DNA of 64,000 nt from an uncultured Gammaproteobacteria bacterium (GCA_964465205.1 CAYXJO010000001.1:5099-69098), one strand, 5' to 3'. Shown: positions 8,645 through 63,577, counted from the first letter of the stretch. A program made the numbers and translations. The notes: a model not told the origin generated them from the sequence alone.

Positions 8645-8852
8645 ATTGGGCACCTCCTTTCTTTTTTAGGATGAAGAATTTTTTCGAACTCGCGATCGCG
8701 AGAAAAAATTTTGCAAATATTTTTTACCAGACAAGCATTTTGGTAAAAAAGTTCGACCTATAGATATTGTATGCTATCTATTTGAAAATTACCATAGTAA
8801 AACACAAAGTTATCCACAGGGCCCTGTGTTTTTTGATGGTGGTATTATTGCA

Positions 8853-8881
8853 TTGACATAAAAAGTTTTTTTAGGTAAAAT
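8853..8881 (+). promoter_or_regulatory. Sigma70-like promoter TTGACA-N17-TAAAAT upstream of the 8916 gene
   Basis: Consensus -35 hexamer, 17-nt spacer and A/T-rich -10, about 35 nt upstream of the start codon. Confidence 0.4.
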
Positions 8882-8915
8882 AATCGCAATTAAAATATTT
8901 TTTAATTTATTTTTT

Positions 8916-9443
8916 ATGGGTTACCTTACTGAAGGAGATGTGCAAATTTTGAAACAATTACGAGAAGAGGGAGTGTTGTCTGAGGTGTCACTTGATTCCA
9001 TGGATTTATCCAACGGCGTAATCATGCTCACTTGTGCGGATGGTGATCAGTTTGAGAGCTACTATTCTCATTTGGCCGAATTAACCAAAAAACAATTGGC
9101 TCGTCCACGCGTGCATACACTAGCGCTAAATGGCGGAGCACTTTTATTATCGGATTTGTGGCCAACCAAAGAAGAAGGTGTCGCCCTGGAACGTCATATT
9201 TCCGCAGCAGTTGATTTGAAAAAAATTTACACCGTAGTCTTGTTTGTTCATGCGCCATGTGGCGCGGCCGGTTTGTGCCATTGGACAATAGAGCAAGTAA
9301 TTGATGCTGGCGTACAAGCTAAGACTCGTATAAAAAGTTTACGATCGGATGTGAAAGTTATTTGTTTGATCCATGTAGATTGGGGACATGATAAAAAGCG
9401 CACCTATTTTTTATCGCGCGATAAATGGTTGGCTAGAAAATAG
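8916..9443 (+). CDS. Hypothetical protein (175 aa)
   Basis: Clean ORF with AT-rich codon usage matching its neighbours. Followed by a perfect palindromic terminator. No recognisable domain. Confidence 0.55.
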   Translation: MGYLTEGDVQILKQLREEGVLSEVSLDSMDLSNGVIMLTCADGDQFESYYSHLAELTKKQLARPRVHTLALNGGALLLSDLWPTKEEGVALERHISAAVDLKKIYTVVLFVHAPCGAAGLCHWTIEQVIDAGVQAKTRIKSLRSDVKVICLIHVDWGHDKKRTYFLSRDKWLARK

Positions 9444-9468
9444 GACAACTTATTAAATAAAATAAAAA

Positions 9469-9494
9469 AATTCGCCAATTGGCGAATTTTTTTG
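9469..9494 (+). terminator. Rho-independent terminator (AATTCGCCAATTGGCGAATT + T7)
   Basis: Perfect 20-bp palindrome followed by a T-run. Confidence 0.65.
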
Positions 9495-9802
9495 TGCTGT
9501 ATTTTAAAGATTGTTCTATTTTTTCCGTTTTTAGTATAGATTAAGTATATCTCATTCTAGCACGTTTTTTAAATTCAGATTTTTTGAGAAAATTATTACT
9601 TTGGTGTCAAATTCTTTAGTAGTTGAAAACAAAAAATCACCTTTATTATTAAAGATGATTTTTTGAAATGCCCCGTCGTCTCTTTTTACAGAGAGTAGGG
9701 GCGGTTGAAGCCGGAACGTTTATGTCACCGGGCGTAGTTGATGGTTGGAAAGAACTTCGCTAGTTCGTCATACGCAGACGAACGCAGATGAGATGATTGG
9801 GT

Positions 9803-62225: not shown

Positions 62226-62246
62226 GTGTACATATTACACTAAGTA
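62226..62246 (+). promoter_or_regulatory. Copy b of 21-bp motif GTGTACATATTACACTAAGTA
   Basis: Lies 15 nt beyond the nrtR-like stop, upstream of the minus-strand PP2C/kinase/NAD operon. Confidence 0.45.
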
Positions 62247-62260
62247 GTTAATAAAAAAAA

Positions 62261-62947
62261 TTATGATAAAATTTTGGCGAGGTGCGTGCGGCTGGCGGCG
62301 GTGAAAAGTTGTGCCGGGCGATTGGGGCGAGAACTATCGAAAGATTTGGTTGGTTTCACTAATTTGAGCGCCAATATTTTTTTGCGGAAATTACGTTTGT
62401 CTAATTTTTTATCGAGAATAATTTCGTAGGCGGTTTGCAAATCGGTAAGGGTGAACAGTTTGGGGAGTAGGGTGGTGATGATACTACTATATTCCAATTT
62501 GGAACGCAAGCGTTTAAGGCCGCACGTGATTATTTCGCGATGATCATAGGCCAGTAACGGCATTTTTTTGACGTCATACCATTTGATGTTTTGGTATTGC
62601 GCACTGGTGATAACTTTAATTTCGACCGGCGGCAAGGGCACCAAGTAGGCGACTGATACCACGCGGCCAAACGGATCGCGATTAACTTTGCCAAAAGTGT
62701 ATAGTTGTTCGAAATATGTCGGGCTCAGCCCAGCTTTTGTCTTCAGGGTGCGTTTCGTAGCGGATTCGAGCGATTCCTGTCCTCCCACCAGCCCGCCTGG
62801 AGCGGCCCACCAGCCGACATATGGCTGTTTGTTCATTTGGATAAGTAGTACCTGTAATTGTTTGTTTTGTAATCGAAAGACTACCGTGTCTACCGCGATC
62901 ACAGCGTGTTGGTATTTTTTGATTTTTTTCGTTTGGGCGGTAGTCAT
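62261..62947 (-). CDS. NrtR-like transcriptional regulator (N-terminal Nudix/ADP-ribose-binding domain + C-terminal winged helix)
   Basis: Nudix-fold N-terminal half (AVDTVVF...VLLIQ...WAAPGGLVGGQESLESATKRTLKTKAGL; catalytic box degenerate). C-terminal TLTDLQTAYEIILDKKLDKRNFRKKILAL resembles the NrtR winged-helix region. AT-rich, unlike the adjacent island. Confidence 0.6.
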   Translation of the reverse strand: MTTAQTKKIKKYQHAVIAVDTVVFRLQNKQLQVLLIQMNKQPYVGWWAAPGGLVGGQESLESATKRTLKTKAGLSPTYFEQLYTFGKVNRDPFGRVVSVAYLVPLPPVEIKVITSAQYQNIKWYDVKKMPLLAYDHREIITCGLKRLRSKLEYSSIITTLLPKLFTLTDLQTAYEIILDKKLDKRNFRKKILALKLVKPTKSFDSSRPNRPAQLFTAASRTHLAKILS

Positions 62948-62968
62948 ACTTAGTGTCTTATATACACA
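62947..62968 (-). promoter_or_regulatory. Copy c of the motif (minus strand: TGTGTATATAAGACACTAAGT), directly abutting the nrtR-like ATG
   Basis: Read in the same sense as nrtR, the motif ends at the start codon (…CACTAAGTATGACTACC…). Confidence 0.45.
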
Positions 62969-63074
62969 TAGTAACTCGGTGGCGACTTAGTGTCAAGGGG
63001 GAGTTATCCACAGGGGGTGGGCGCTAAACAAAAAATCCCCACGTATGTTCACGCGAGGATTTTTAATTTCGTAA

Positions 63075-63356
63075 TTAGGCGGATTTGAGCGCGTCTTTGA
63101 GCGCTTTGCCAGCTTTGAATTTCGGAACTTTCACAGCCGGGATTTGAATTTTTTCGGTTGGGTGTTGTGGGTTGACGCCAGTGCGGGCGGCGCGCGTCTT
63201 GGAAGAGAAAGCACCAAAACCGGTGAGTACTACTTCTTCACCCTTTTTCAGAGCGGCGGTAATTTCGTCCACGAGCGCGTTGATCATATCTTCGGTTTCG
63301 CGCTTGGATAAATTCAATTTTTCCGCGAGAACTTGAGCTAAATCAGCTTTGTTCAT
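63075..63356 (-). CDS. hup: HU/IHF-family DNA-binding protein
   Basis: MNKADLAQVLAEKLNLSKRETEDMINALVDEI…GFGAFSSKTRAARTGVNP is the HU-family pattern. 93 aa. Confidence 0.85.
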   Translation of the reverse strand: MNKADLAQVLAEKLNLSKRETEDMINALVDEITAALKKGEEVVLTGFGAFSSKTRAARTGVNPQHPTEKIQIPAVKVPKFKAGKALKDALKSA

Positions 63357-63577
63357 AATGTCACCCCCTTTCGCAAATTTGCTTGTTGCATAGTTTGGCT
63401 ATAGTTACAGTAATATTGTAACACGCCCGAAAATTTTTGGCTATAATTAGGCAAATTAGTTATCCACAGTCAAATAACTAAAAAGACACTCATTTTTTTG
63501 TTTGGATTAAAAAAACAGGGGTATAAAGATTTTAGTGACTTTCGAGCCTGCATTGATGAAAATCGATTAAATTAAAA

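Follow-up and report, generated by a model that had tools for sequence, protein, structure and literature searches.

What is a nine-base word doing when it recurs, letter for letter, between the genes of one short piece of a bacterial chromosome? The question arises from a 64,000-nucleotide stretch of DNA from an uncultured bacterium (GCA_964465205.1, CAYXJO010000001.1:5099-69098; the whole stretch is called the window below), in which the 9-mer TTATCCACA occurs eight times on the two strands, each time as an exact 9-bp copy of the consensus DnaA box (TTATNCACA). Judging from the enrichment of the word, its restriction to non-coding DNA, its fixed spacing from promoter elements and its conservation, we regard it as very probably functional, the promoter-proximal binding site of a conserved factor. 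That the factor is DnaA, with a role in transcription, has on present sequence evidence about an even chance of being right. Matches of FtsH and GyrA (best values, 79% for FtsH among species-representative genomes and 89% for GyrA among metagenomes) placed the window in a Candidatus Magasanikbacteria-like lineage of the Patescibacteria.

The copies begin at 8810 (plus strand; Box A), 11797 (minus; Box B), 22264 (plus; Box C), 32664 (minus), 41627 (minus; Box E), 45075 (minus; Box F), 63004 (plus; Box G) and 63460 (plus; Box H). An earlier, sequence-only reading of this DNA had counted six, overlooking those at 11797-11805 and 32664-32672, and had set the copy at 45075-45083 one base too far along, at 45076-45084. 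The enrichment that it claimed stood nevertheless, as did its estimate of about 0.5 copies expected in 64 kb: in 100 dinucleotide-preserving shuffles of the window the word was found 0.45 times on average and 3 times at most, and none of the shuffles reached 8. A simple map of the longest open reading frames (ORFs), with Pfam checks, left 10,023 bases of non-coding DNA in the window. Seven of the eight copies fell in this fraction, where Markov models of order 1 to 3 predicted 0.09 to 0.11 and 300 composition-matched control 9-mers gave a mean of 0.06 and a maximum of 1. The claim that every copy is intergenic therefore failed for a single one, at 32664-32672 on the minus strand, which is inside the coding sequence of threonyl-tRNA synthetase (thrS). 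About 0.35 coding copies are expected by chance, no promoter-like site was found on either side of the thrS copy, and it is probably a chance occurrence outside the system. The most over-represented 10-mer of the window was GTTATCCACA, with 5 copies versus 0.08 expected. Extension into GGG (TTATCCACAGGG), described earlier for most copies, was observed at only three of the eight (8810, 22264 and 63004). For their part, one-mismatch variants of the word were not enriched in the window, with 17 found versus about 15 matches in total expected.

The same distribution was found in 2.4 Mb of DNA from relatives (two sets of related loci, of 1.29 and 1.15 Mb). The raw count there, about 0.15 copies per 10 kb, was unremarkable before coding and non-coding DNA were separated. 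After the split, 23 intergenic copies were counted versus a mean of 2.1 and a maximum of 9 for 300 control 9-mers, which is an enrichment of about 11-fold, and 17 coding copies versus a control mean of 15.4. Thus, with an intergenic excess and coding copies at chance level, the enrichment of the box in non-coding DNA is clade-wide. The earlier description of the site as lineage-specific was too narrow, as the arrangement recurs in Magasanikbacteria-like genomes and in some more distant Patescibacteria; boxes are nevertheless densest in this genome and in those closest to it. A genome-wide skewed oligomer, such as an uptake sequence, Chi or KOPS, was rejected as an explanation, because coding copies are at the control level in the window as well as in the relatives and the orientations are mixed.

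Recurrence of this kind could also be the remnant of a dispersed repeat or a mobile promoter cassette, or an effect of composition or chance, and several copies do share a preceding G, a following G or GGG and a nearby TTGACA. As far as sequence analysis can tell, we consider such an explanation extremely improbable. None of the families returned by a repeat finder covered the sites in the window, the flanks were unrelated past two bases on either side, with a column composition that was flat outside positions -2 to +1, and the bases separating box and -35 hexamer were different at each site (gggtaaccc, acagaatc, ctatac and ctccccc). Unrelated flanks, together with the lack of enrichment of one-mismatch variants, indicate that the box is not a dispersed repeat. 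Miniature inverted-repeat transposable elements (MITEs) and repetitive extragenic palindromic (REP) elements were likewise rejected, since the copies share no sequence outside the core motif. The longer repeat that the sequence-only reading had named as its own refutation was looked for and not found. As to composition and chance, the control 9-mers and the Markov models would account for about 0.1 intergenic copies, against the seven observed.

The copies do not mark a replication origin either. The nearest exact pair in the window is 456 bp apart, no cluster of the oriC, datA or DARS type (at least three boxes, one mismatch allowed, within 350 bp) was found in it, and the GC (guanine over cytosine) skew keeps a single sign throughout and is monotonic. 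Without a box cluster and with a monotonic skew, an origin in the window was rejected, in agreement with the previous description of the sites as dispersed and not oriC-like.

Where, then, do the boxes lie with respect to promoters? At four of the seven intergenic copies in the window (Boxes B, C, F and G) a perfect TTGACA is found 6 to 9 bp downstream of the box, in either orientation of the latter, and at all four a -10-like hexamer follows after 16 to 17 bp. Box B (11797-11805, minus strand) is in forward orientation and is separated by 8 bp from the downstream -35 of a sigma-70-type promoter at 11761-11788 (minus; TTGACA at 11788-11783, a 16-bp spacer and TATATT at 11766-11761), which matches the consensus at 11 of 12 positions, carries a TG extension and serves an SPFH/Band 7 gene (9803-11674, minus; Pfam Band_7). 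Box C (22264-22272, plus), also in forward orientation, lies in the spacer between rpsA and ftsH, 9 bp upstream of the -35 of a promoter at 22282-22310 (plus; TTGACA at 22282-22287, a 17-bp spacer and TAATAT). Box F (45075-45083, minus; TGTGGATAA on the plus strand) is in reverse orientation, 6 bp upstream of the -35 of the promoter at 45090-45118 (plus; TTGACA at 45090-45095, a 17-bp spacer and TAATGT at 45113-45118) of a yerC/HisR-like gene (45143-45460; Pfam Trp_repressor). Finally, Box G (63004-63012, plus) is reversed relative to the minus-strand NrtR promoter, on which it reads TGTGGATAA, and is placed 7 bp upstream of its -35 (promoter at 62968-62996, minus; TTGACA at 62996-62991, a 17-bp spacer and TACTAT at 62973-62968); the gene served (62261-62947) encodes Pfam NrtR_WHD and NUDIX domains. 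Two of these hexamers had been noticed before, one correctly at 22282 and the other at 45091, one base beyond its true start; those on the minus strand, at 11783-11788 and 62991-62996, are added here.

The spacing was surveyed in the window and 161 related loci, taking as a promoter any match to at least 10 of the 12 consensus positions. Forward boxes had a promoter at an offset of 8 in five cases and of 9 in four, with no other offset below 21, and reverse boxes had one at offsets of 6 to 8 in four cases. At these forward and reverse offsets 13 boxes were observed, versus 0.13 expected from the density of promoter matches in non-coding DNA. The offsets were chosen post hoc and some of the loci are near-duplicates (L094 and L130, L160 and L161, L082 and the window; related loci are numbered with the prefix L), but neither circumstance can account for an excess of phased boxes of two orders of magnitude. 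Less regular spacings, of 16 to 17 and 23 to 25 bp, were seen in a few cases, too few to give more than a hint of helical phasing. A perfect box at 7 to 9 bp was carried by three of the 15 intergenic promoters with the best matches in the window, and a degenerate one by none, the closest reaching 6 of 9 positions; the box is thus an all-or-none element. In short, it holds a fixed position relative to the core promoter elements, as a promoter-proximal transcription-factor site would.

The box was also retained at orthologous promoters, those of the rpsA-ftsH spacer, HU, NrtR and yerC, in the midst of diverging non-coding DNA. When the rpsA-ftsH spacers of the window, L083, L124 and L004 were aligned, the only run of invariant columns was formed by the nine bases of Box C, and in L013 the spacer contains TGTGGATAg 7 bp from TTGACA. 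L082, 88% identical to the window, keeps the boxes near HU and NrtR, the latter with a spacing of 6 bp, and its similarity to the window upstream of HU starts at Box H and runs through the HU promoter. At the yerC promoter of L163 to L166, TGTGGATAA, the 6 bp and TTGACA are kept and the remaining promoter sequence differs; a variant, TTATCCCCA, is found 9 bp from the -35 in L172 and 17 bp from it in L169, and L167 and L171 have the gene with no box at its promoter. Box-bearing promoters were found in the relatives at rpsA and at tRNA or small-RNA genes as well. At the rpsA promoter a perfect box was found in L008, at 8 bp, and in L083, at 23 bp, and the window has at 8 bp only TGTAGTTAT, a match at 6 of 9 positions; box sites are thus gained and lost. 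The suggestion of a promoter-proximal transcription-factor site is thereby upheld by four features, the spacing to the -35, the conservation at orthologous promoters, the lack of clustering and the lack of shared flanks.

Spacing and retention also bear on the possibility that DnaA binds these sites without regulating initiation, the boxes serving for titration (datA-like, as in the initiator-titration model) or as roadblocks that stop read-through before the next promoter. Perfect, high-affinity single boxes dispersed on the chromosome are what the titration model needs. In accordance with a roadblock, the boxes stand at the upstream edge of promoter regions, often directly behind the terminator of the gene before, Box A coincides in part with a terminator-like hairpin, and DnaA/box complexes of Escherichia coli are able to block elongating polymerase. 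Neither proposal, however, predicts the 6- to 9-bp spacing to the -35 or the retention of boxes at the same promoters across lineages. Sites for titration could equally well be coding, and yet coding copies are at chance level; DnaA roadblocking, for its part, depends on orientation, whereas both orientations are found here. We therefore consider binding without regulation improbable.

Which protein would recognise the box? In the classical consensus, TTATNCACA, position 5 is N, and a scan of all single substitutions of the 9-mer in 2.5 Mb found only the change of C5 to A (TTATACACA) to be comparably enriched (17 intergenic versus 14 coding copies, the baseline ratio being 0.13), G or T at this position giving an enrichment of just 2- to 2.5-fold. 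The TTATACACA copies have the same flanks as the boxes; as a spaced promoter element, TTATACACA was rejected, the flanks being shared and the phasing to the -35 absent. Among 29 intergenic boxes, position -2 was A in 17, and positions -1 and +1 were each G in 12, so that the extended consensus reads a-G-TTATCCACA-G. This agrees with the flanks preferred in E. coli, where DnaA-bound sites read gagTTATCCACAg or ggTTATCCACAg in chromatin immunoprecipitation sequencing (ChIP-seq; Stringer et al., PMC11317965). E. coli regions bound by DnaA almost always hold one perfect box (PMC11317965), a rule that fits the all-or-none pattern described above.

Further indications came from other lineages. In L047, from a distant Patescibacterium, two copies of TTATCCACA, one of TTATCCACT and one of TTATACACA are gathered within 110 bp upstream of a Pfam-confirmed dnaN, and a second cluster of DnaA boxes, with a double box (TTATTCACAgtTTATCCACA), is found 2.5 kb away. 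The two clusters, at 10620-10820 and 13190-13270, flank dnaN and the next gene and contain repeated TGTGCACA motifs, an origin-like arrangement that would fit a DnaA recognising this 9-mer. The specificity of the box is, moreover, unchanged over lineages that are just 60 to 80% identical in FtsH or GyrA, which would suit a very conserved DNA-binding domain. On sequence grounds DnaA, raised in the sequence-only reading as a possible regulator, is in our view the best candidate for the binder, at a level of confidence midway between doubt and acceptance.

Several observations weigh against this reading. A tblastn search of the window and the related loci with domain IV of E. coli DnaA gave no dnaA match, and the oriC of this genome is not within the window or those loci. 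In vivo, E. coli DnaA mostly needs two boxes with 2 to 3 bp between them, and of the 32 perfect single boxes it left 19 unbound (PMC11317965). Partner boxes at 2 to 3 bp are absent here, the best partners averaging 3.4 matches of 9 versus a background of 3.0 and reaching 6 of 9 only at sites 8810 and 41627. The box promoters already have a consensus -35, which is unusual for promoters that depend on an activator, and the position of the box hardly differs between its two orientations, an uncommon finding for a monomer in specific contact with polymerase. The spacing to the -35 is lacking at TTATACACA copies, and Boxes A, E and H do not have the 6- to 9-bp distance. Finally, the box density per non-coding kilobase of the window is about 10 times that of the average relative, most relatives being some 10 times lower, and the counts for this genome itself cover 64 kb.

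Some of these points would be explained if the architecture were the same and the binder were a different one, either another conserved protein of the Patescibacteria or a part of RNA polymerase (the alpha C-terminal domain or sigma region 4), with a site that resembles the DnaA box by coincidence; in that case the box would serve as an upstream promoter element or activator site and have no connection with replication. A fixed spacing to the -35 combined with both orientations is typical of flexible polymerase contacts, single boxes with no partner do not resemble the sites that E. coli DnaA occupies in vivo, and hardly any enrichment was seen here for the one-mismatch variants accepted by DnaA in other settings. 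The frequent position of the box beside a second dispersed palindrome hints, in addition, at a lineage-specific regulatory system. A coincidence at nine of nine positions with the canonical box, together with E. coli-like a-G...G flanks, is nonetheless improbable, and in a Patescibacterium copies of this very 9-mer are gathered in an oriC-like region beside dnaN; given this cluster, the DnaA of the group probably recognises the 9-mer and would compete for the sites anyway. As regards polymerase, a box at just three of the 15 strong promoters of the window does not correspond to a general element. All in all, a binder other than DnaA seems to us possible and rather unlikely.

The TrpR-like protein encoded at 45143-45460, of a family whose fold class is that of DnaA domain IV, might also bind the box and regulate its own gene, since in the window and in L163 to L166 a box precedes the -35 of that gene by 6 bp. 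Its recognition helix holds TTTV, reminiscent of the DHTTV of DnaA. The probability of this binder is, in our opinion, negligible. The box has no dyad symmetry and so does not resemble the operators of the family: YerC is HisR, a TrpR-family dimer acting on 20-bp palindromes (PMC9413887). In relatives yerC heads histidine biosynthesis genes, a separate inverted repeat over the -10 in five of them would be the natural operator, and L167 and L171 have the gene with no box. The YerC/TrpR-like protein was accordingly rejected as the binder of the box, being of the HisR type, with its own palindromic operator and his-gene neighbours.

If DnaA is the binder, the boxes would be independent, single, perfect DnaA-box-type sites acting as promoter-proximal protein-binding sites. 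In the canonical layout the box would end 8 to 9 bp (forward) or 6 to 8 bp (reverse) upstream of the -35, which puts its centre near -47 to -49 in either orientation, just upstream of a sigma-70-type core with a near-consensus -35. DnaA would sit as a monomer on this high-affinity box, recognised by its ATP and ADP forms alike, and would contact RNA polymerase or stabilise it, in the way suggested for the high-affinity boxes of E. coli nrdAB; at high levels of DnaA-ATP it might spread over the -35 and cause repression. The sign of the effect, like the identity of the protein, we infer. In this way a set of promoters would follow the amount of free DnaA, in an organism whose regulators are very few. 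The set in the window would comprise those of HU, NrtR, the HisR-like YerC, the SPFH protein and an unannotated RNA, with the TrmB-like regulator at Box E and the small basic protein at Box A as possible further members, for which no promoter is fixed. A broader version, which we advance tentatively and hold to be somewhat less than evenly likely, is that in Magasanikbacteria-type Patescibacteria DnaA acts next to promoters as a transcription factor of general use, and that one promoter class is defined by a lone perfect box near -48, in either orientation. With the same reserve, the genes of this class would be those of nucleoid proteins (HU and possibly a 38-amino-acid lysine-rich protein), of ribosomal protein S1, of small or stable RNAs and of several of the few regulators present in these cells.

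Short, non-palindromic elements just upstream of the -35, at set distances and in either orientation, are familiar from MarA, SoxS and Rob sites and from upstream promoter (UP) elements, and in this the boxes are similar to them. Mar boxes are about 20 bp long and degenerate, with an orientation tied to the distance class, and UP elements are A+T-rich and degenerate; the element described here is, unlike either, an exact 9-mer with almost no variation. Among DnaA sites, the targets of Bacillus subtilis DnaA have clusters of several boxes, the targets of the DnaA regulons are mainly replication, nucleotide and cell-cycle genes, and datA is also a cluster. The regulons of B. subtilis and Caulobacter crescentus nevertheless provide the likeness of an initiator that doubles as activator or repressor and links expression to the replication cycle (PMC8203912). 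At nrdAB of E. coli, DnaA bound to high-affinity boxes at low DnaA-ATP, or as DnaA-ADP, was proposed to stabilise RNA polymerase and activate transcription, and high DnaA-ATP to repress it (PMC8203912). High-affinity consensus boxes in the promoter region are common to both systems, the nrdAB box gTTATCCACAa being of the same type (PMC11317965). By contrast, two boxes separated by 3 bp form a double box at nrdA, where another box is also present; those described here are single and stand at a stereotyped 6 to 9 bp from the -35 in both orientations; nrdA is, besides, one of about 16 DnaA-bound regions in 4.6 Mb, compared with 7 sites in 64 kb here. Like datA and the dispersed boxes of E. coli, the present sites are perfect TTATCCACA copies outside oriC with gagTTATCCACAg flanks, and unlike them datA carries a double box (PMC11317965). 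E. coli has 32 perfect boxes in 4.6 Mb (PMC11317965), roughly the number expected by chance, with no promoter geometry, whereas those described here are some 70- to 110-fold enriched in non-coding window DNA and phased to promoters. A role of DnaA as a transcription factor is thus already known, and a fixed position relative to the -35 is not described for the DnaA regulons in the two reports (PMC8203912, PMC11317965); what differs here from the described cases is the use of single perfect boxes, their stereotyped distance from the -35 in both orientations and their density.

The three intergenic boxes with other spacings are surrounded by features of their own. Box A (aagTTATCCACAggg, 8810-8818, plus strand) lies between a 38-amino-acid lysine-rich ORF (8528-8644, minus) and a gene at 8916-9443, and overlaps the hairpin CACAGGGCCCTGTG, which is followed by a T-run. 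A plus-strand promoter (TTGACA at 8853-8858, TAAAAT at 8876-8881) begins 34 bp downstream of it, and a minus-strand TACAAT, read by eye, is found about 38 bp from it, upstream of the small basic ORF. The latter (MAAKKKAKKKVVRKVAKKKVVRKVAKKTTKKKATKKRK) has a strong GGAGGTG ribosome-binding site and a terminator downstream, and its product may be a small nucleoid- or ribosome-associated basic protein. Box E (41627-41635, minus) is located in the divergent spacer between a TrmB-like regulator gene (40797-41555, minus) and a NadM-like gene (41739-42791, plus), with no promoter scoring at least 9 of 12 within 70 bp; in L107 a box is found 21 bp upstream of the -35 of a gene read as TrmB-like from its N-terminal helix-turn-helix sequence. 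Box H (63460-63468, plus) is reversed relative to the minus-strand HU promoter and lies 16 bp upstream of a weak -35, TAGCCA, which forms a candidate HU promoter (63415-63443, minus) with a 17-bp spacer and TACAAT.

A second motif of the non-coding DNA is the 16-bp palindrome TGGCTAAAATTAGCCA, which was found with at most 3 mismatches at 8 sites versus 0.7 expected (22239-22254, 30173-30188, 35007-35022, 41600-41615, 41640-41655, 56413-56428 and 63438-63453, plus a weak one at 25302-25317). Four are within 30 bp of a TTATCCACA box: the copy at HU, 63438-63453, overlaps the -35, and those at 41600-41615 and 41640-41655 flank Box E. Similar GGCTAA/TTAGCC palindromes occur near boxes in L001, L010, L110 and L124, and the element is probably the operator of a dimeric regulator. 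The -35 hexamers themselves are often extended to CCCTTGACA (22279-22287, 34981-34989, 56381-56389, 62988-62996 and others), with 5 copies in the window versus 0.2 expected and 22 intergenic versus 4 coding copies over all loci; the housekeeping sigma factor of the clade may prefer such a longer -35.

The Box C promoter precedes an unannotated candidate structured RNA (22316-22735, plus) of about 420 nucleotides, which is G+C-rich, starts from a consensus promoter, contains a direct repeat of about 55 nucleotides (22545-22600 and 22637-22690) and ends in a terminator-like hairpin with a T-run. Its fold z-score was -3.1, and no match was obtained in Rfam, with ARAGORN or by nhmmer against the relatives, which show at the same location a box-bearing promoter followed by G+C-rich sequence. 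A nested hairpin of about 75 nucleotides is present right after the stop codons of rpsA and ftsH (22150-22225 and 24769-24844), with a 22-bp A+T-rich stem enclosing a GTGCCC...GGGCAC stem, and is probably a shared terminator or REP-like element. An element of 100 nucleotides occurs twice (32180-32279 and 63559-63658, 70% identity) and again in L082 (1-175), with apparent compensatory changes in its hairpin (GGACC...GGTCC versus GGGTC...GACCC) and a conserved GAGCCCTCGCGGGCGAG; it had no Rfam match, and its orientation to the neighbouring genes is inconsistent.

Two blocks of 55 to 58% G+C stand out in this genome of about 42% G+C. The first is the SPFH/Band 7 gene (9803-11674), which despite its high G+C has a native-looking A+T-rich promoter with a box. 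The second, at about 45500-62000, holds genes of NAD salvage and synthesis (NadE, NAPRTase and NadD/NadK-like), a kinase and a PP2C phosphatase; it looks like an insertion, since yerC is only about 3 kb from HU in L163 to L166. Three TATGGTGTAnnATATACACTAAGTA-like repeats with an internal palindrome (62100-62144, 62222-62266 and 62949-62993) surround the NrtR gene and overlap the -10 region, the last of them overlapping the Box G promoter; they are probably operators through which NrtR controls the neighbouring NAD genes. At yerC, an inverted repeat TGTGTTA...TAATACA followed by (A/G)TGATACAA covers the -10 in L163, L167, L169, L171 and L172, a similar but imperfect one is found in the window at 45096-45142, and in several relatives the gene heads hisG, hisE, hisI and hisA-type genes, which points to a histidine regulon of the HisR type in Patescibacteria.

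Most members of the Patescibacteria (the Candidate Phyla Radiation) have not been cultured; their genomes are of about 1 Mb with very few recognisable regulators, and a literature search returned no report of the motif, or of DnaA boxes, in the group. A short, exact and conserved element at a fixed place in promoters offers a testable handle on the control of transcription in these cells, and one that can be assayed in E. coli, the DnaA of which recognises this 9-mer too. In metagenome-assembled genomes the box also serves to point out real promoters and RNA genes that lack annotation. Should DnaA be the binder, a minimal cell would wire its housekeeping promoters directly to the replication initiator, and single boxes would be able to work when phased to RNA polymerase, unlike under the double-box rule of E. 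coli. If, further, DnaA were a general factor in these organisms, a substantial share of their transcription would be slaved to replication-initiation potential, through a binding mode not seen in E. coli.

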